Shown here: positions 4,436 through 18,237 of the stretch, in pieces
How the letters are laid out: each line of letters opens with the position of its first letter
Numbering within the stretch: the first letter of the stretch is position 1
Virus record (IMG/VR): IMGVR_UViG_2718218399_000013
Origin: a virus
Lineage: Duplodnaviria; Heunggongvirae; Uroviricota; Caudoviricetes
DNA length: 24,737 nucleotides
Direction: 5' to 3' (one strand)
Made by a program: the position numbers and the translations under genes
Notes under the pieces: generated by a model
Database searches by the model: none
The model's input: the letters and a program-made list of their open reading frames with translations, nothing else
Told to the model about the DNA's origin: nothing

Positions 4436-4656
4436 CAGGCCACCTCCGCATTCATCAGGTCGTCATGGCAGCGTTGCACCACTCCATCCAGTTGCTCTGT
4501 CATCAGATAAATGAGGGAAACCAGTTGTTCGCATTGGGCACCTGCTGGCTTTTCATAACAGTCCTGCAGGGCTGCCATGCCAGTTACATACTCACCCACA
4601 TTGCGTAAATGTTTCAGCCTTACAACATCGTCGTAGGAAATCTCAAACTGGTTCAT
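4435..4656 (-). CDS. small protein (73 aa), P4-like left operon
   Basis: ORF with 4-nt start/stop overlap to the upstream ORF and 1-nt overlap to the downstream ORF; acidic small protein. Confidence 0.45.
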
Positions 4657-4847
4657 AGCGTCACCTCCCCGGCAGGCAGCCGTGCAGAAAGGGAGAGTAC
4701 ATAATCTCGGACTAGCAAACGGCGCGCGGAACGCTCATCGCAGGAGACAGTGCGAAGCATACAGATGCGGGGGTGAGTGTCAGCACGGCGGATTGCGGCA
4801 AACACAAAGACATATTGCGGGTGTGACGGGGTGAGGATTGTAGCCAT
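4653..4847 (-). CDS. small protein (64 aa); only the 3' part of the 185-aa track ORF is likely coding
   Basis: ATG at 4847 preceded by GGAGG (4856-4860, 8-nt spacing); the upstream 120 codons of the track ORF translate to low-complexity sequence over a GC-rich repeat region. Confidence 0.4.
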
Positions 4848-5206
4848 GATGGCAGCCTCCAATAAGTAGCGGTTATTGCTACCACCGGAAACGCCAATTT
4901 CACTGGTGGCAGCCCGAACGGGGTTGGCGTAACCGGCCTTATTGGAAACCGGCCAGCCCGAAGGCTGCCCCGCCCGGACTACCATTATCTCGATAGAACC
5001 ATGGTGTAAGCATAAACACCACAGCCCTGAAAATGGTTGTGCCTGAGCTACGACGTAAAAAAAGACGCAAGGGGCGTCAATTGTCGCCAATAAGTTATAC
5101 GGAACGCCAATTCCGGCTGCCGATTTTGCGACAGCGGAAAAACTATACCTGGAAATGACGACAGTAAGCAAGCCAGAATAAAGGTATTTAATGTATGCAG
5201 GTATCA
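4848..5206 (-). ncRNA. candidate structured non-coding leader or immunity-RNA region of the P4-like left operon
   Basis: About 360 nt without a convincing ORF between the AlpA/Vis-like gene and the first small ORF; GC-rich direct repeats cagcccgaa (4910-4918, 4954-4962) and aaccggcc (4931-4938, 4947-4954) plus local hairpins (cagcc-cgaa-ggctg); P4 places its RNA-based immunity determinant at this position. Confidence 0.25.
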
Positions 5207-5467
5207 TCATGCATCACATCCCCGCCCACGGGCGCTGATGCGGTCCGCCATCCATGCGCTGACCTCAGACTGTGCCCAGGCGACATTTTTACCGCCAAGC
5301 GGGATCTGCTTCGGAAACGCATCGCGGCTGATCAGGTCGTAAACGGTCGAACGGGACAACCCGCATAAGTGCATCACCTCAGGCAGGCGTAAAAATCGCT
5401 CATGATGGTTCGATACAGGAAATAATGGCGCAGCAGGAGCTGGCGCAGACACAGAAATATTACGCAT
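5207..5467 (-). CDS. AlpA/Vis-family small DNA-binding regulator (excisionase-like HTH), 86 aa
   Basis: Motif [48 protein letters not shown] typical of the AlpA/Vis family; RBS gaggg upstream of the ATG at 5467; first gene of the leftward operon. Confidence 0.7.
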
Positions 5468-6312
5468 TTATCTACCCTCTTTAATTTCCACAACAGTCCG
5501 GATGAATTTATCCGGGTTCAGGTAGTTCCTTATTATGTGTATATAAACCACCTGCGCACGCATTTTTTATTTAGCGTCACATATTGATTTTATGGAATTT
5601 AAAGCCCGATTAAACCATATAAAATGACATAATAAATACCATGCCTGCGGACTATAAATACAGGAGCATTAATAGGAACTACCATTCACCCAGGGTTTAC
5701 TATCCTATGGGTCATTGCACCTGATAGTGCTAACCCCACCGCCAATACAGCAAGGCAGTACAACTTCTACACGAGGCCTTGCATTGCAGGCCCCAATTTC
5801 CGGGCATATTTTTGAATCGCATCCAACTTATAAACATTGGGCCTGCATAAAAACCTTGATATTAAATAACATCACCTTAAATCGTAAAATATATCCGAAT
5901 GAATCCATAAAGAACCGGACAGATCTAGTTTTATAAAAATCAGTATGAAATGCAACACCATGGCCAGAGGCGAAAATGTTATTCCCCGGCAAAAACATGC
6001 AGTCTATTTATGTGCCTGTTGAATACTCCTGAATAAGGGTGAATAGTGGTGAGGAGCAAAAAACAAATAGCTACGAGGAATAAAAAAACCACCCATTATG
6101 AAAAAATACCATAAATAATTTTATTCCCATGTGAACAGTTATGAACAGTCGATGAATACTGCCATGCCAACCCTTCACCTTATAACCTTCTGTATTACCT
6201 ATTTTTTTTACCTAAGTGAATAGTAGTGAATAGTTAAGGTAAGTCTGAAACAGCCTTAGTTAAACGAGGCCTTTTCTGGCTAGCCAAAAGAGGTCCGGGG
6301 CGGTTCAGTCTT

Positions 6313-6330
6313 TGTCTTGTCGCTCGCACA
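6313..6330 (+). promoter_or_regulatory. TGT-N12-ACA dyad, putative Ogr/Delta-type activator site of the late promoter upstream of the sid-like gene
   Basis: TGTcttgtcgctcgcACA lies about 70-90 bp upstream of the ATG at 6401, matching the P2/P4 late-promoter activator consensus recalled from the literature. Confidence 0.4.
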
Positions 6331-6400
6331 ATGGCGTTCAATGGCAGCTTTGTATGCATCACAGCACAATTGACACCACGACAAACCACTAGGTGCTGAC

Positions 6401-8388: not shown

Positions 8389-8955
8389 TTAAACAGGATA
8401 AAAACCAGAGCTTCCATTCTTATTTAAGTTATGGATTTTATTTGCATCATTAATTTTTATTTGGAACGTCGGACCTTTATTCTCAAGAATTACAATCTGG
8501 AAATTATAGTCCCTTTTGATTAATGCGTGATAAAATGAATCACTGAGACTGACGCTATTAACATCCGATAGAGAACCCCCTCTATCTTTATCAAAGTGCG
8601 TCACTAATGGACTATCAAGCACAACAAATCCAATGAATGGATTCCCTTTTCTTGATAAAAATTCCGCAAAGCAAATGGTAAATATAGCATGCATTACTGC
8701 ACGGGTACCTTTACCAAACATTCCTCGGCGTTTCCCATTGATATTAAAGTCATATGTATCTTCGTCAAATCGCACTTTGTTATCTTTAGAATTTTCAAAA
8801 TTTATATCATTCAAAAAGTCTTGCATCGCTATTTCTATATCATACAAATCAGCTACTGTTAAGGAGTCAAAGTCCTCGGCGGAGTATTTAAGTTCGTCAA
8901 CATCATCTTCTTTATCTTGTAATGAAGATAGAATGCTATGTTTTGTGTGATCCAT
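8389..8955 (-). CDS. C-terminal ABC-ATPase head fragment (Walker B / D-loop region), 188 aa; third piece of an SMC/Rad50-like ATPase
   Basis: FGKGTRAVMHAIF (degenerate signature-like) about 20 aa before GFVVLDSPL (Walker-B-like); start ATG overlaps the upstream stop as TAATG; AT-rich. Confidence 0.5.
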   Translation of the reverse strand: MDHTKHSILSSLQDKEDDVDELKYSAEDFDSLTVADLYDIEIAMQDFLNDINFENSKDNKVRFDEDTYDFNINGKRRGMFGKGTRAVMHAIFTICFAEFLSRKGNPFIGFVVLDSPLVTHFDKDRGGSLSDVNSVSLSDSFYHALIKRDYNFQIVILENKGPTFQIKINDANKIHNLNKNGSSGFYPV

Positions 8956-9545
8956 TAAAAGATTGTCTTTATATTCATAAAGTGATTCAAGAGATGAATG
9001 TATTGTTTTATATTTTTATCTTCTAACGTCTTAAAATCACTTTTTTCTGATTGATAAATTTCATTAACATCATTTTTTCTTAACATAATTAATTCATGTT
9101 CGCGAACATTAGATCCGATTGATTCAATTAATCCTTTCAGCTGGCTTTTGATTTTCAATTTTTCTGCATTACACGACAAAAAACAATCATCATATGATAT
9201 TTCATTTTCTTTTTTTTGCGGTGTATTACAGAACTCACAATAAATATCTGCAAAATTATTTAAATAGAAATTCGCCTGTGATACAACATCTATTCTTTGT
9301 AGATCTATAAAGTATTGGTCTTTAAGAAGACTAAATCTTTCAATGAGTAATGATAAGTATTTTTCCCTGTCACTGATTGAATATAATTCATCACTTAACT
9401 CTTTTAATAATTGCTTCTTATCATCAAGTGCATCAACAATACCTTTCAATATATCTTTCGATGATTCAATATCTTGCTCTACTTTCTCAAGTTCTCTTGA
9501 AACAATGACTTGATCATATTCAGGATAAATTAATTGCGCTTTCAA
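8955..9545 (-). CDS. coiled-coil middle segment of an SMC/Rad50-like ATPase with a possible zinc-hook motif, 196 aa; no ATG start, in frame with the upstream ORF across a single TAA
   Basis: Heptad-rich charged sequence; Cys cluster YCEFCNTPQKK...DCFLSCN; track start is TTG, first internal Met is near the C-terminus; upstream ORF is in the same frame, separated only by TAA at 9576-9578. Confidence 0.45.
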   Translation of the reverse strand: MKAQLIYPEYDQVIVSRELEKVEQDIESSKDILKGIVDALDDKKQLLKELSDELYSISDREKYLSLLIERFSLLKDQYFIDLQRIDVVSQANFYLNNFADIYCEFCNTPQKKENEISYDDCFLSCNAEKLKIKSQLKGLIESIGSNVREHELIMLRKNDVNEIYQSEKSDFKTLEDKNIKQYIHLLNHFMNIKTIF

Positions 9546-9575
9546 TTCCTCATAAATATTTGCAATTTGATTTTT

Positions 9576-10208
9576 TTAAAAATATCTTGCTTTTTTATTT
9601 GGTTTTTCTGCTAAGGAGTTAGTATCATCTCTCTGAGTTAAAAGGAATTTAAATTCAGACTTTCTTTTTGTCTCCTCGCTAGGAATATCAGAAAGAATTA
9701 ACGACTTCTCAGTTAACACTCTTAATTCATCAATACAAAAAAATTCAAAAACATTATTAAGATTAAATTTATGAAGAGTATTACTTAAGTTTGTTCTTAC
9801 TTTAGCCTCTTTGAAATTCAACCTACCATAAAAGTATGATGAAAAACTCTTTTTAGACGAAGCACTTTTGGAAAAAACCATCAACAGATTAGCTTCACTA
9901 ACATTTTCAATGCTCGAATCATATAATCTGTAATGGGCGCTATCCTGAAGAGACCTCTCAATTGTCATTACCCTACCTTGAAAATTAAATTCCAGATAGG
10001 CTAAATCATAACCTTGAGCATGATCGATATCTTTATTTTTTAGTTTTTCACTCCCTAATAAATATCGAATCAAATAATATATGTATGTTTTTCCAGAGTC
10101 AGAACCACCATATAAAATAGTCAATTTAGAACCAAATTCAATTATAGCATCTAATTTATTGAATCCGGTTACCTTTATTTTTCTGAACGTAAAAAAATTG
10201 TCATTCAT
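9576..10208 (-). CDS. N-terminal ABC-ATPase head (Walker A) of an SMC/RecF/Rad50-like protein, about 210 aa before an in-frame TAA
   Basis: FTFRKIKVTGFNKLDAIIEFGSKLTILYGGSDSGKTYIYYLI is a typical ABC/SMC N-terminal P-loop; candidate ATG starts at 10208 or 10226 (the track uses TTG at 10235); ends at TAA 9576-9578 with the next ORF in frame. Confidence 0.6.
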   Translation of the reverse strand: MNDNFFTFRKIKVTGFNKLDAIIEFGSKLTILYGGSDSGKTYIYYLIRYLLGSEKLKNKDIDHAQGYDLAYLEFNFQGRVMTIERSLQDSAHYRLYDSSIENVSEANLLMVFSKSASSKKSFSSYFYGRLNFKEAKVRTNLSNTLHKFNLNNVFEFFCIDELRVLTEKSLILSDIPSEETKRKSEFKFLLTQRDDTNSLAEKPNKKARYF

Positions 10209-10659
10209 AATTAAATTCCATATCATATTTGCCAATTTTATTTTTTATAATTGATTGCAACTGCTCATCAGGAATATCACTATATAACTTAACCACCAAA
10301 TTTATATTATGCTCCATCTGCGCAACATATTCATTATGTAGAGAATTTGTAAATGCATATGTTTTTTCAGAAGCTTTATATACAAAACCACGATGTGTAT
10401 AAATTTTTGAGGCTAGTTCATAGCCTTGCAACAAAGCCAATGATTCTAAAACAATCTCTCGTTTTAGGGCTAACTGAGCATCTCTACGGGGTATTGGAGG
10501 ATGAAGACTAATCTCTTCAGGTAAAAAATCCTTAAGATTTACTAAAATAAAATCAAAACAAATAAGCCGTTCAAGGCTTAATGAAGAAGGATAAATAGCG
10601 ACGAGCACTTTCGCCATTCGACATGCCACTTCTAAACTTGAATTATAAATTCTAACCAT
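10201..10659 (-). CDS. hypothetical small protein, 152 aa from the ATG at 10659; candidate small subunit of the cargo system
   Basis: ATG overlaps the upstream stop (TAATG); its stop lies 5 nt after the downstream ATG at 10208; AT-rich; no recognisable motif. Confidence 0.5.
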   Translation of the reverse strand: MVRIYNSSLEVACRMAKVLVAIYPSSLSLERLICFDFILVNLKDFLPEEISLHPPIPRRDAQLALKREIVLESLALLQGYELASKIYTHRGFVYKASEKTYAFTNSLHNEYVAQMEHNINLVVKLYSDIPDEQLQSIIKNKIGKYDMEFNYE

Positions 10660-11276
10660 TATCTCACCGTCCAAATTACTTCACCATCATTAACCAAATG
10701 ATGGCATATTCCTTTTTTATCATTTGCTTCACATATTTTTGATAGTACTGAATGTGCAATTGGTGTCAGAACAGCCTGCTTCAAGACTGCATTACACCTA
10801 ATAAATGCATAATTATGGTCTTCATAAAAGACGGGTTCAATTGAAGATGAAATGTAACATTTCAATGCTTTGAATACATCATCTTTAAATACTTCGCGGA
10901 CAAAAACCTCAAGCGAAGATGCAAAATAAAAATCATTTCTACTATTATTAAAGTGTCGTCTGTATGGATCATCAAGCTCTAAGAAAGAACTATAAGTTTT
11001 ATTTCCATGCTCTGAATAGGCTTGAAGCAGTGCATTAACATATACAGACTCTTTTTTTGAATTGTATGTTGGAATTTCATTTGGAGGGATTCTCACGACA
11101 TACAGCTCGTTAAAGTACTTAAAATAAAGGTGTGTATTTGCAATATCATTTAAAATCAATGATAAGGGTAGAGAGTAAAAAATACTAAAATCAAAATCCT
11201 CAATATATTTTTTTATTTCATCATCTAATGGAATATCAATCTTTTTAGTTATTTTTTTGAAATTGCTGAATCCCAT
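10659..11276 (-). CDS. hypothetical protein, 205 aa; possibly the C-terminal domain of the upstream Mrr-like nuclease ORF
   Basis: ATG lies 28 nt inside the upstream ORF with no clear RBS; one extra A in the A7 run at the junction would fuse the two ORFs in frame. Confidence 0.45.
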   Translation of the reverse strand: MGFSNFKKITKKIDIPLDDEIKKYIEDFDFSIFYSLPLSLILNDIANTHLYFKYFNELYVVRIPPNEIPTYNSKKESVYVNALLQAYSEHGNKTYSSFLELDDPYRRHFNNSRNDFYFASSLEVFVREVFKDDVFKALKCYISSSIEPVFYEDHNYAFIRCNAVLKQAVLTPIAHSVLSKICEANDKKGICHHLVNDGEVIWTVR

Positions 11277-11665
11277 GAATCAAGGACTGCTTTTTTAAGC
11301 TCGTTTTTATTTTTCAATAAATTAGAAAATGTAGTAGATAAATCATAGGGTGCCACAAAAAAGTACTTCTGAGGGATGGGATAATCACCATTCAGAGTAA
11401 AATAGATAAGTTTTCCAAACTCAACTACAACATCAGAGAACCCTAAACTTTTTTTGTACAGTTTGCATTGATAATTATCCCAAGAATAACCTTCTACGTT
11501 AGGATCCGATTTATATCCAACAACGTCTCTACCTTTATCTCCAGCTCCTCCCAAACGTTCGCTCCACGGGTAATCATCTGATTTACAGACAATAAGCCAA
11601 TCATGGACAAATACCTCCCATTGTTCATCATCCCATGTCAATATTTCCGAAAGTGGTTGAGACAC
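11249..11665 (-). CDS. Mrr-like PD-(D/E)xK restriction-endonuclease-fold protein, 138 aa; first gene of the cargo operon
   Basis: GGAGDKGRDVVGY ... YQCKLYKK matches the Mrr catalytic-domain pattern (G-x-G-D-x-G-x-D ... Q-x-K); GTG start with aaggag RBS embedded in the 3' end of int (int stop 3 nt upstream). Confidence 0.6.
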   Translation of the reverse strand: MSQPLSEILTWDDEQWEVFVHDWLIVCKSDDYPWSERLGGAGDKGRDVVGYKSDPNVEGYSWDNYQCKLYKKSLGFSDVVVEFGKLIYFTLNGDYPIPQKYFFVAPYDLSTTFSNLLKNKNELKKAVLDSWDSAISKK

Positions 11666-12850: not shown

Positions 12851-13012
12851 GTGTATAGGAATCCAGACCGAACAGGAACATATACACAATCCTATACACA
12901 TTCAGTACCGGATTCTACTGGATGGTTACGGACTACTATGGACTTAAAAGAATAAAAAATGTTATAAATCAGAGATTTTATGGACTAATACGGACGTTTG
13001 AGGAAGTTGAGA

Positions 13013-13058
13013 TGGTGCCGATAATAGGAGTCGAACCTACGACCTTCGCATTACGAAT
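13013..13058 (-). repeat. direct repeat: 46-nt copy of the thrW 3' end (att core) between the two elements
   Basis: 13013-13058 is identical to 23294-23339 (tggtgccgataataggagtcgaacctacgaccttcgcattacgaat); the 5' half of the tRNA is absent. Confidence 0.85.
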
Positions 13059-13405
13059 TATAAGAATCCGCTTCTAATTCAAAGCATTACCCCATCAACA
13101 CTGCGCTCACACGTCCCACCACATCAAAACATGTAAAGCCTTGCAAGCCATTGCGAGGCCTTATGTGTCTCAGTTTTGTCCCACCTTGTATTACGACTTG
13201 CATAGCCAATGAAGATAAACGTGACGACAAACGGCGCAGCAGTCTTCTTTTCTTTCACGACTTCTCCAGCATGCATACCTTTCTGCCATGACTGAAGTGA
13301 ATGCCTGTTATGAGCAAGGATTGGCCCAGATGAATCGCCCTGGACTGTTGCGATCGTGAAGCCATAGACTGGGCCGCAAGCACGGGAGGTTACGATAAAG
13401 CGACA

Positions 13406-13771
13406 GTGCAGGATGTCATGTTAGGAGCGATAGAAAAACGCTTTGGCGATAAAGTACCGGAACAGTCCATCCAGTGGCTGACAGATAACGGTTCAGCGTA
13501 TAGAGCGCATGAAACACGGCAGTTCGCCAGAGAGTTGAATCTGGAGCCCTGCACAACGGCAATCAGCAGTCCTCAGAGTAATGGAATTGCAGAAAGGTTC
13601 GTGAAAACGATGAAGGAAGACTACATCGCGTTCATGCCGAAACCGAATGTAAGAACGGCATTGCATAATCTTGCAGTGGCGATCGAACATTACAATGAAA
13701 ACCATCCGCACAGTGCGTTGGGTTATCGCTCTCCGCGAGAATATCGACGTCAGCGGGTAACGTTAACTTAA
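13406..13771 (+). pseudogene. IS3-family (IS2-like) transposase, C-terminal DDE-domain fragment
   Basis: [25 protein letters not shown] ... [19 protein letters not shown] ... [15 protein letters not shown] resembles the IS2 orfB C-terminus; no intact upstream reading frame; IR-like sequence gataccccccctgtctggaaataagggggcaa follows at about 13775-13806. Confidence 0.7.
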
Positions 13772-13812
13772 GATACCCCCCCTGTCTGGAAATAAGGGGG
13801 CAAGAACAATGA

Positions 13813-14556
13813 TCAGATTCCCTGGTGAGTAAGAATTTTACTTTCTGAACTCCTCTGAGAGTATTGACTTGGAGAAACACCAAAATAACGTCTAAATACA
13901 TAAGTAAAGTATGAGACACTGGCATAACCACAGACCTTAGCTACTTTACTAATAGGATAACAACGAGTGCTGAGTAAATATTCAGCCATTTGCATCCTCT
14001 CATCAAGTATGATCTTACTGAATGATACCCCCTCTTCTTTCAATTTCCTCTTTAGTAAACTTTCGCTGAGATATAATCTTGATGATATATCCTTAAGACG
14101 CCATGGTGCAGATAAATCCGTATGAATAATCGTTTTAACTTTAGCCCCTGTGCTTTTCAAACATCCAAACAGAAATACTCCAAATTGTTTTTCAGAAGAA
14201 AATGCAGAGAGACATGTAAAAGCAATAGACTCATCAAAAATTTCTATGTATTCAGCACAGTGATTAGCCCAACTAATTAATCCTTTAATTAAACTGAAGT
14301 CAGCAAAGTTTATTTTTAAATAAGATGGATATTCCCTACAATCAGAAATATCCCTTAAGTTATTAGCTTTCAAATAGCGACTAATAAACTCAGCGCCAAA
14401 ATCCGCCACTATCACTCTTTCAGGATATGTCAGGAAAAAATCTCTAGAGCTAGAGTCGACAAGTACAGATGAACCTCTCTCCAGAAACACACTCTCTTTT
14501 CCGAAATAAACATCAAAGGACTCCAAAATCAATATAACTGAACATGTAGTTGCCAT
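13813..14556 (-). CDS. AraC-family transcriptional regulator (AppY/GadX-like), 247 aa
   Basis: C-terminal double HTH WRLKDISSRLYLSESLLKRKLKEEGVSFSKIILDERMQMAEYLL ... GYASVSYFTYVFRRYFGVSPSQY; AT-rich; long AT-rich upstream region. Confidence 0.8.
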   Translation of the reverse strand: MATTCSVILILESFDVYFGKESVFLERGSSVLVDSSSRDFFLTYPERVIVADFGAEFISRYLKANNLRDISDCREYPSYLKINFADFSLIKGLISWANHCAEYIEIFDESIAFTCLSAFSSEKQFGVFLFGCLKSTGAKVKTIIHTDLSAPWRLKDISSRLYLSESLLKRKLKEEGVSFSKIILDERMQMAEYLLSTRCYPISKVAKVCGYASVSYFTYVFRRYFGVSPSQYSQRSSESKILTHQGI

Positions 14557-15138
14557 ATCATCCCCCCAATTTAACTGAAACCAGGATGAAGTATATGTAT
14601 ATAAAGTTCACTTTGCCAAACTTCAGTATAAAAAACCACTAAAAATAGGGTGTGATAAAAAATACCGTAACAATAAAGCAAAGGATTATAAATTCCGTTA
14701 CAGTTACAAATGATACTCAAGAAACAATTCCTTAGGAAAAACTTATTTACAGCCAATAAGTAAGACACTTATATGATATCAAGTTTTCATAAAACATAAC
14801 TAGGCTAAATAGCTGCGCCTAATACCGCTACACTTTTGCCAGCCCATGTTTGCCTCCGGGTATTGACCCCTTCTCTACGCAACTTCAGTTCCCACCACCA
14901 ACTTTGCGGCAGCTTTGTAGGATCAATGTCTAAAAGAATAATGGTGACCGATAAGAAAACGACTGAATAACTGCAGATTTTCGCTCAAAACCTTCCTGTC
15001 AGATCCATAGCGAATCAAGTGCTGAATGTCACAGTATCGAACAGAAAACAGTGACGATCTAACCCTTCAAGAATATTCTACGATTGTTCTGTTTAGGAAA
15101 AGCAAGACGGGAAGTCGGGAGATAAGTCATTGATAAAG

Positions 15139-15200
15139 TGGCGGAGAGAGGGGGATTTGAACCCCCGGTAGAGTTGCCCCTACTCCGGTTTTCGAGACCG
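15139..15200 (-). pseudogene. partial tRNA-Ser (CGA anticodon, serU-like): 3' 62 nt only
   Basis: Minus strand reads ggtctcgaaaaccggagtaggggcaactctaccgggggttcaaatccccctctctccgcca, matching the anticodon arm to CCA end of serU-type tRNA-Ser; the 5' part including the D-arm is absent. Confidence 0.65.
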
Positions 15201-15283
15201 ACCCGATCATCAAACGAAACATAAAATTAGCTCACATTATGAGGAAAGGTATCTTTTTGCGCTATGTAAATTCAAAGGGTTAG

Positions 15284-16153
<870 letters not shown>

Positions 16154-16210
16154 ATCTTCAAGTGGTAAGCATAAACCGCAGCACGATCTTGCATACGACG
16201 TGCTACGGTT

Positions 16211-16765
16211 TCATTTATCTCCGGCCGGAAACTTCTTATACAGTGTCGATACACCAACATCATAGATGATCGCTACCTTCTGGCGAGGAATTCCTGCTGC
16301 AATTAATCGTCCGGCCTGCGCCCATTGTTCTGGTGTAAGTTTGGGACGACGTCCACCAATTCGTCCCTGTGCGCGAGCAGCTTCCAGTCCAGCTTTTGTT
16401 CGTTCAACAATCAGTTCTCGTTCCATTTCAGCCAGGGCCCCCATCACATGAAAGAAAAAGCGCCCCATTGGGGTACTGGTATCAATAGCATCCGTCAGGC
16501 TGCGAAAATTAACGCCACGTTCGCGCAACTCCTCAACCAGAATGACCAGATGCCGCATACTGCGCCCCAGCCGATCCAGTTTCCAGACAACCAGAGTGTC
16601 ACCTGCCGATAATGTCCTGAGCAGTTTTTTCAGTCCCGGCCTTTCGGACTTTGTACCGCTTATCTTGTCTTCAAAAATCAGCTCGCATCCTGCACAGTTC
16701 AGCGCATTACGTTGTAGATCTGTGTTCTGGTCATTTGTTGACACACGTACATAGCCAATAAGCAT
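16211..16765 (-). CDS. pin: Pin/Gin/Hin-family serine DNA invertase, 184 aa
   Basis: MLIGYVRVSTNDQNTDLQRNAL ... GDTLVVWKLDRLGRSM ... GRIGGRRPKLT is near-identical to the e14 Pin sequence as recalled; a 26-bp crossover-type site lies just upstream. Confidence 0.9.
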   Translation of the reverse strand: MLIGYVRVSTNDQNTDLQRNALNCAGCELIFEDKISGTKSERPGLKKLLRTLSAGDTLVVWKLDRLGRSMRHLVILVEELRERGVNFRSLTDAIDTSTPMGRFFFHVMGALAEMERELIVERTKAGLEAARAQGRIGGRRPKLTPEQWAQAGRLIAAGIPRQKVAIIYDVGVSTLYKKFPAGDK

Positions 16766-16819
16766 GGTAGATCTCCCTGACAAAAGCAGGAATGATGCCA
16801 TTTGCTCGTTATTTCTGCA

Positions 16820-16845
16820 TTTTCATAAACGTTGGTTTGGGAGAA
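16820..16845. repeat. pix/gix-type recombination site (proximal) of the invertible segment
   Basis: ttttcataaacgttggtttgggagaa; its reverse complement shares the half-site ttctcccaaaccaa with the site at 18373-18398 and fits the Hin/Gin crossover-site pattern. Confidence 0.6.
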
Positions 16846-17254
16846 GCGGCAAAACGGGATGTGGGGACAGGGGAAAATCAGATACCGGACATGGCTCTTT
16901 GCCATGTATGGATGGATGAAATTACCCAACGGGAAAATCCTGCAATATGTCTGGTGCGGTTTCCCGCATTATCGACGCCGTGAATTCATTCGATCTATCC
17001 CAGGCGACTGCGCGAATTATTCTGGAGGCAGTACCTTTAGGCCGGGTAGGCGAGGTGCGGGACACGCAATTAACTTTCATGATGCATCGCGAATCACCAG
17101 GACACGATTAATTACAGTTGTGGGTGTGGTGGAATTTTTTCAGTCAGGGAATATGCATTATTTTGTAGGCAAATAATGACCTGTTTTTGATGAAAATGGG
17201 CTGGCTACAGGCGCATATGGTGTTTATATATGCTAATCTGAGTATAGGCTGTCG

Positions 17255-17708
17255 ATGAAAATTATATGCGTAGTATGCCGCCTGCATGGTATTGACCCTG
17301 GCGAAAACATTCCGGGAAGAGTTGCAGTATTTACAGGTAAGGGATGGAGCCATGAAGAAGACCATCGCAATGAGACTGTTTACTCAATCGAAAATGGCGC
17401 AGCTGTTACAGTGGATTATATCGGTGCCATCAAAGACGGTTATGTCACGATTTCACCGTTAACGCCATACGATAAATGGGATGGTGAGAAATGGGTGACA
17501 GACACTGAGGCACAACACAGTGCCGCAGTAGACGCGGCAGAAGCACAGCGCCAATCACTGATTGATGCAGCAATGGCTTCCATTAGTCTGATTCAGCTGA
17601 GTTACAGGCCGGACGGAAACTGACTCAGGCAGAAACAACCCGACTTAACGCCGTGCTGGATTACATTGACGCGGTGACGCAACATACCACCGCGCCGATT
17701 CATCTGGC
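17255..17708 (+). pseudogene. tail fibre assembly protein (Tfa-family), frameshifted twice near the 3' end
   Basis: GYVTISPLTPYDKWDGEKWVTDTEAQHSAAVDAAEAQRQSLIDAAMASISLIQL, then LTQAETTRLNAVLDYIDAVT and IWPELPEA-stop in two other frames (about 17600-17708). Confidence 0.65.
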
Positions 17709-18237
17709 CTGAACTGCCGGAGGCGTAGGCCATTCAATATCTGGCGCACCGGAAGTATCGACCAGCTCCAGTGCGTCCATTTCCGATTATATCGTCATTC
17801 GTCACCTTCAGGACCATCCCTTACCGCATTGCTACTGTTCATGTATTCGTTGGCCTGGTTAATTAGTAGCTGTCTTTCTGATTCAGTAATTTCAATAAGC
17901 TCTTCATGCGTGGTAGATATCTGCCACGCAGCAGCCATCATTCGCAATACGGATTTCCGCGGCACTGTAGCCAGCCATTTTCATCAAAACAGTTTCATTA
18001 TTTAGCCCTCACCAGAAAGTTAAATGCAATATTTCGCGGTCTGACTGCAACAAAATTCACACCATCACCCACAGACTGTGAATTAATCGTGAATCCTGGC
18101 TGATTTCCGGCGATGCCATCATGAAAGTTAATTGCGTGTCCCGCACCTTCGCCTATATCCGCAACTGAGAAAGTTGTAGCGCCTGCCAGCTAATAATGCG
18201 ACACGTCTGCACTCGCCGTCATCCAGATACGAATGAA

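Follow-up and report, generated by a model that had tools for sequence, protein, structure and literature searches.

A predicted P4-type RNA immunity switch within the eta-like reading frame of a satellite prophage of Escherichia coli O157:H7

Immunity in phage P4 is exerted by RNA from a region that comprises PLE, seqA, t1, cI/CI RNA with seqB, seqC, and kil nested in eta, through a mechanism that involves the termination sites t1, t4 and timm and processing by RNase P. Control by the C4 RNA of phages P1 and P7 (immI operon c4-icd-ant) is described as translational repression with polarity; there, the C4 segments a' and b' pair with a1 and b1 upstream and with a2 and b2 at the ribosome-binding site of icd, and the first gene under control encodes an Icd-like inhibitor of division. 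In P4, a constitutive promoter, seqA and CI all lie within one long open reading frame, eta, whose C-terminal portion is Kil (PMC10111431). Translation of this frame is coupled to the alpA homolog, occurs only on transcripts from a late promoter upstream, and keeps termination from taking place (PMC10111431, citing Forti et al., 1999). The RNAs IsrK and C4 are the equivalents of P4 seqA and CI RNA (PMC3632133; PMC4825925). In the Salmonella prophage Gifsy-1, IsrK also precedes a C4-like processed RNA, designated STnc1160 in Salmonella, and was shown to activate translation in trans (PMC4825925). An RNA immunity switch of this kind is therefore textbook P4/P1 biology and already known; both RNAs are curated Rfam families, and Rfam already lists both for O157:H7 strain EDL933. 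A large survey of P4-like satellites leaves the immunity RNAs, eta and kil unmentioned (PMC8628076).

We analyzed a 24,737-nt stretch of DNA from an IMG/VR virus record (IMGVR_UViG_2718218399_000013), referred to here as the window. A sequence-only reading had singled out positions 4848-5206 as a GC-rich, repeat-bearing stretch with no credible coding potential, lying where P4 encodes its RNA-based immunity. It had placed the limits correctly: on the minus strand, this is the interval between an AlpA/Vis-like gene, whose reading frame ends at 5207, and a small Icd-like gene with its ATG at 4847..4845. The interval belongs to a P4-like satellite prophage carried by E. coli O157:H7. Many O157:H7 chromosomes contain a sequence identical to the window, and a 901-nt query around the region found matches in 988 of 5426 complete E. 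coli genomes, with at least 99% identity in 306. Gene order runs from the integrase through a defense hotspot to homologs of delta, psu and sid, followed by the divergent alpA, the long ORF described below, two small ORFs and an alpha-type primase-helicase. The P4-like satellite core set is present, as judged by Pfam for the primase domains and AlpA and by RefSeq for the integrase, psu and an ogr/Delta-like gene.

Two neighboring stretches may be recorded here. Between the delta/psu/sid homologs and the integrase (8389-11665, minus strand) lies a satellite variable region with an ABC-three-component system, comprising by RefSeq name an AAA ATPase, a middle component 2 and an ABC-3C protein, with hypothetical genes alongside; such defense-system cargo has been described for P4-like hotspots. 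To the right of the satellite integrase, 12900-24737 (where coordinates from the reference-strain annotation drift by about 88 nt relative to the window) holds lambdoid prophage remnants, with cII, cro/cI-type and LexA-family repressor genes and a truncated replication gene, broken up by IS3-family elements and accompanied by pseudogenes. Beyond the remnants are a truncated integrase beside tRNA-Thr (CGU; 23294-23369) and proA.

The region itself is organized as follows.

5207..5467, minus strand: AlpA/Vis-like HTH gene, 86 aa (Pfam Phage_AlpA, 1.2e-19)
4653..5210, minus strand: 185-aa ORF, homolog of P4 eta, annotated in RefSeq as "Icd-like protein" (WP_000973389.1), which holds the promoter, leader, C4 and kil
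5142..5171, minus strand: predicted PLE-like constitutive promoter, with -35 TTGCTT (5171..5166), an 18-nt spacer and -10 TATAGT (5147..5142)
5058..5135, minus strand: leader RNA, homolog of IsrK and P4 seqA (Rfam RF01394, 71.9 bits, model positions 1-77 of 77)
5057..5078, minus strand: intrinsic terminator, equivalent of P4 t1 (GACGC-CCCUU-GCGUC, then U7)
4996..5027, minus strand: conserved spacer hairpin between t1 and C4 (arms 5027..5018 and 5005..4996), outside any Rfam model
4902..4989, minus strand: C4 antisense RNA of the P4 CI type (Rfam RF01695, 84 bits, model positions 1-87 of 87)
4653..4847, minus strand: 64-aa kil gene (icd-like), 3' portion of the long ORF and first gene under control

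Both RNAs emerged from an Rfam search, a check that the sequence-only reading had proposed: two full-length minus-strand matches exceeded their gathering scores (50 for isrK, RF01394, and 45 for C4, RF01695), with E-values of 1e-14 to 1e-15. P4 yields the same two matches in the same order, between orf88 (vis) and kil, plus a sub-threshold match to the c4-a1b1 target motif (RF03163). That motif likewise fell under its gathering score of 46.7 here, at 44.6 bits (5148..5096, E 8.7e-10), as P4's own match does just barely (44.1); the sequence it matches is also covered by the isrK match. The proposal of a riboregulator analogous to P4 CI RNA is thus supported by a full-length C4/CI together with a full-length IsrK/seqA leader. 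Two other sub-threshold Rfam matches in the region, CRISPR-DR22 and IS009, were rejected as chance (E 0.13-0.15, far under gathering score).

These matches bear on the idea that the repeats and hairpins are chance features of a nonfunctional remnant in a decaying prophage. Although IS elements and pseudogenes do lie to the right of the satellite, chance does not account for two full-length Rfam matches or for the covariation of C4 and its targets reported below; moreover, the satellite core genes are all intact, more than 300 E. coli genomes carry an identical copy of the region, and Phytobacter, Kosakonia and Kluyvera have elements of the same immunity type. We assign this explanation a negligible probability.

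Beyond the Rfam matches, P4 aligns with the region query at 69% identity over 82% of its length. The two share the TATAGT -10 hexamer, leader hairpin 1, the t1 terminator, the C4 core and the kil Shine-Dalgarno (SD) sequence and ATG. They also share complementarity of C4 to two sites, one upstream and one downstream, a long in-frame ORF over all of these elements (185 aa here), and the overlap of the alpA stop with the start of the long ORF (GCATGATGA), which is kept in several other relatives as well. In contrast, the element has 39 nt less between t1 and C4 than P4, in a spacer of different sequence that forms another hairpin, and it shares neither recognition box and none of the four target boxes with P4 (CCUGUGAA and UUCUCAC in P4 versus CCAAUAAG and ACGCCAA here). 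The C4 RNA of P1 and P7 belongs to the same RF01695 family and has the same fold, but the P1/P7 operon continues to the antirepressor gene ant, while here replication genes of the P4 type would come next in the transcript and the RNA is enclosed by an open frame. Similarly, the leader is a full-length match to the model of Gifsy-1 IsrK (two 5' hairpins, a single-stranded stretch and a Rho-independent terminator, approximately 77 nt), yet IsrK lies upstream of orf45-anrP (antirepressor) in a lambdoid prophage, whereas the leader here lies upstream of kil and alpha in a P4-like satellite.

The leader comprises two hairpins, the single-stranded a1 box and the terminator t1, which falls within the isrK model match, is conserved in P4 and was also found by an independent search. 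The TATAGT hexamer ends 7 nt before the start of the isrK model, and the P4 record X02534 annotates the same conserved hexamer as the -10 sequence. A consensus promoter scan did not call the promoter at 5142..5171, because its -35 element is weak (3/6).

C4 consists of a 17-bp closing stem, a UUCG hairpin, a second hairpin with a' in its loop, the single-stranded b' and an ACCA-type 3' end. Folding and covariance analysis had also been suggested as checks, and both point to a structured RNA: alone, the minus-strand C4 segment folds into the model structure (minimum free energy [MFE] of -50.8 kcal/mol, z -4.9; plus strand z -1.2), and relatives show compensatory changes. We scanned one genome per species with a core pattern that left the C4 variable positions free; this gave 120 loci, about half of which were discarded as fortuitous matches in genomes of high GC content. 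With a covariance model made from 12 P4-type sequences, we retrieved 51 C4 copies. Across an alignment of 47 distinct sequences, pairing is seen in 98.1% of cells (30-50% in slid controls) and 16 of 27 pairs are compensatory; this alignment was fitted to the model, and the scan pattern had predetermined part of hairpin 1. Two features of the sequence-only reading need correction. Its "GNRA-like hairpins" came from reading the plus strand, while the tetraloop on the transcribed minus strand is C(UUCG)G; and "GC-rich" applies to the C4 segment only, the central ~90 nt at about 62-65% GC, with the remainder at 45-50%.

As a separate observation, the segment comprising C4 and the downstream target (approximately 4988-4829) matches Stx1- and Stx2-converting phages, phiP27 and phage 2H10 at 70-82% identity. 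In those phages the matching segment lies under genes annotated as antirepressor or regulatory protein, and the matches would fit c4-icd-ant modules of the P1 type carried by lambdoid phages that share this host.

Two pairs of direct repeats had been noted from the sequence, CAGCCCGAA (4910-4918 and 4954-4962) and AACCGGCC (4931-4938 and 4947-4954). Both pairs are present, and both are arms of C4 RNA stems. More informative are two repeats that had gone unremarked, AACGCCAATT (4890-4899 and 5103-5112) and CCAATAAGT (4859-4867 and 5087-5095); their copies flank the central GC-rich block, and each has an inverted copy inside C4. A further motif, CTTATTGG, occurs five times in the window against 0.93 expected, with three copies within 236 nt. 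The boxes of the putative switch are the following.

4938..4945, minus strand: a' recognition segment CCAAUAAG, 8 nt, in the loop of C4 hairpin 2
4924..4930, minus strand: b' recognition segment ACGCCAA, 7 nt, single-stranded, 3' of C4 hairpin 2
5104..5110, minus strand: b1 box UUGGCGU, in the loop of leader hairpin 2, complementary to b'
5087..5094, minus strand: a1 box CUUAUUGG, in the leader, complementary to a'
4891..4897, minus strand: b2 box UUGGCGU, in the downstream target, seqC-like
4859..4866, minus strand: a2 box CUUAUUGG, overlapping the kil SD GGAGG (4860..4856)

If G-U pairs are counted, the pairing of a2 with C4 reaches 12 bp. We assessed these pairings in a plain MAFFT alignment, fitted to no structure, of 25 P4-type elements from Escherichia, Erwinia, Serratia, Pantoea, Kosakonia, Kluyvera, Enterobacter, Edwardsiella and others. 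Upstream (b1 with b' and a1 with a'), all 375 of 375 cells are paired and 12 of 15 pairs have changed on both sides; downstream (a' with a2 and b' with b2), 99.2% of cells are paired and 13 of 15 pairs have changed on both sides. Slid controls for pairing between segments gave 36-54%, and shuffle controls overstate the significance of such counts because related elements share ancestry. The expectation, taken from P4, that the RNA would pair with both upstream and downstream sequences is thus supported by complementarity of C4 to each site that covaries across the 25 elements.

The boxes also vary as sets. In the comparative set we found 12 types of a and 8 types of b in at least 17 combinations, matched within every element. 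Each module is present as three interleaved copies (b1, a1 ... a', b' ... b2, a2), and whenever one copy changes so do the others; reassortment would therefore need triple or several crossovers within very short conserved segments, or else concerted evolution of the copies; the pattern hints that such concerted evolution would be under diversifying selection. The predicted duplex of C4 with its own downstream site is about -38 kcal/mol, against -23 to -24 kcal/mol for cross pairs between the window and P4, but these whole-segment RNAduplex energies are confounded by palindromic CCGG stems that pair in any combination, and we therefore relied on box-level pairing counts. Because its recognition boxes differ from those of P4, the element is predicted to be heteroimmune to P4, and probably is.

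The statement that the interval has no credible coding potential held in one respect and failed in another, and the evidence also bears on the possibility that the region is simply protein coding, that is, the N-terminal two-thirds of an "Ash/Icd-like" protein with incidental repeats and hairpins. The 185-aa ORF spans the whole interval and is a RefSeq CDS, the only feature given by RefSeq at the locus, which lists no ncRNA there. Pfam PF10554 (Phage_ASH) matches aa 22-132 of the ORF (E 4.8e-30), which correspond to the translated leader and C4. From the leader to the kil ATG, the eta frame contains no stop in 16 of 16 P4-type elements, while the other two frames contain 1-5 and 3-7, and all indels within it either have lengths divisible by three or occur as compensating -1/-2 pairs. 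Codon-level signatures of protein selection, however, are absent from the eta-specific part: its codon-position entropies are 0.54, 0.55 and 0.51, with a synonymous fraction of 0.17 (0.20 and 0.17 in the shifted frames). The kil part shows both a third-position and a synonymous excess (entropies of 0.53, 0.45 and 1.10; synonymous fraction of 0.48, compared with 0.10 and 0.09 in the shifted frames). The Icd domain itself is limited to kil (NCBIfam phage_ICD_like, 1e-17, confined to aa 133-179 of the long ORF).

Conservation instead tracks the RNA pairs, with compensatory changes both within C4 and between C4 and its targets, and in more distant C4 loci (Rahnella, Thiothrix and others) the RNA persists across an eta frame interrupted by stops. 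A protein-only reading as the sole explanation is refuted by this covariation, and we consider it very improbable. The sequence-only reading had treated a conserved protein in the region as grounds for abandoning the riboregulator; this was mis-specified. The RNA elements of P4 lie inside the eta ORF (PMC10111431), as they do here, and the presence of an ORF is therefore no argument against RNA function. We conclude that kil is a real, Icd-like protein-coding gene. On the sequence comparisons made here, the eta frame is selected to stay open while its protein sequence is unconstrained and RNA constraints dominate. PF10554 is probably a model of translated conserved RNA genes.

Folded in isolation, the downstream target region (4848-4901, minus strand) adopts a hairpin of -24.1 kcal/mol (z -4.7) in which the kil SD is hidden, and a YUCC anti-SD just 3' of b2 can pair with GGAG in 25 of 25 elements. 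This arrangement recalls the trans-activation described for Gifsy-1 (PMC4825925), in which a terminated leader acts in trans on the read-through transcript and opens a translationally inactive structure to activate the downstream ORF. Under such a mechanism C4 would be secondary here rather than the main repressor. The full-length isrK match of the leader fits such a mechanism, as do the a and b boxes that it shares with the downstream site, through which it could compete for C4 or for intramolecular partners. We tried the SD-burying hairpin as a family feature and rejected it: as a whole its pairing is unconserved (70% of cells, compared with 69% in shuffles), and only this immunity type has the long form. 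What remains across the elements is an invariant pairing of anti-SD with SD, which does not covary. In addition, the gene content of the element is P4-like with no antirepressor operon, and covariation ties both target sites to C4. As a replacement for the P4 mechanism, trans-activation of the IsrK type is thus very unlikely; it could be an extra layer beside that mechanism and need not replace it.

We also observed that the kil ribosome-binding site and start, GGCUGCCAUCA (4847-4857), form a direct repeat with the 3' end of C4, GGCUGCCACCA (4904-4914), of which they are a near copy. P4 and the window do not differ in this kil start region, which in the unprocessed transcript could form an alternative pairing with the 5' arm of the C4 closing stem.

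Taken together, these results indicate that the region is very probably a P4-type RNA immunity switch that works as in P4, a function that we strongly infer from homology and covariation. The anatomy and pairings come from the sequence and its comparison with relatives; the steps of action set out below follow P4 and P1, and the mature RNA ends, processing by RNase P and sites of termination are carried over from them. Transcription from the internal promoter would yield the leader and would often end at the terminator at 5078..5057. Read-through would produce the spacer hairpin, C4 and the kil ribosome-binding site. C4 would be cut from this primary transcript, accumulate and pair with nascent transcripts of the same promoter. 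Pairing of b' and a' with b1 and a1 on the leader would increase termination at the leader terminator, by which C4 would regulate itself, and pairing with b2 and a2 would block kil translation and cause termination before the replication genes (alpha primase). The expected outcome is an element that stays quiescent and is immune to superinfecting elements of its own type.

Escape from this switch would depend on eta. By analogy with P4, eta would be translated only from late-promoter transcripts that start upstream of alpA, through coupling to alpA, and the transit of ribosomes through eta would make such transcripts insensitive to the RNA switch. An open frame with unconstrained amino acids is consistent with this role of translation as transit. 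TGT-N12-ACA is the type of motif found in late promoters activated by P2 Ogr and P4 Delta. A search upstream of alpA found no exact copy of this P2-type motif. The only sites nearby are three TGT-N12-ACA dyads (at 6130, 6313 and 6351) within 6130-6368, just upstream of the divergent sid-like gene (6401); this cluster is suggestive, while over the whole window the motif is no more frequent than chance (6 versus 6.1 expected).

The spacer hairpin between t1 and C4 is conserved in structure within a spacer that is otherwise highly variable: over the 25 elements, 90% of its cells are paired and 6 of 10 pairs have changed on both sides, compared with 31-61% paired in slid controls. It might aid processing of the precursor or insulate folding. 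We tentatively join three features into one reading, which we regard as possible though rather doubtful as a whole: a two-module immunity code, an unmodeled hairpin between t1 and C4, and an eta frame that may be kept only for the passage of ribosomes, with PF10554 perhaps built on RNA genes. In the literature that we searched, we found no description of modular boxes, of the spacer hairpin or of a frame that is open yet unconstrained.

A well-understood RNA immunity switch thus very probably resides, apparently intact, in the P4-like satellite of O157:H7, with a predicted specificity unlike that of P4. For annotation, the locus is a case that automated pipelines misdescribe, as RefSeq gives a CDS without an ncRNA and Phage_ASH largely reflects conserved RNA. 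The modular boxes, the spacer hairpin and the unconstrained open frame could be of interest to those who study competition among satellites.
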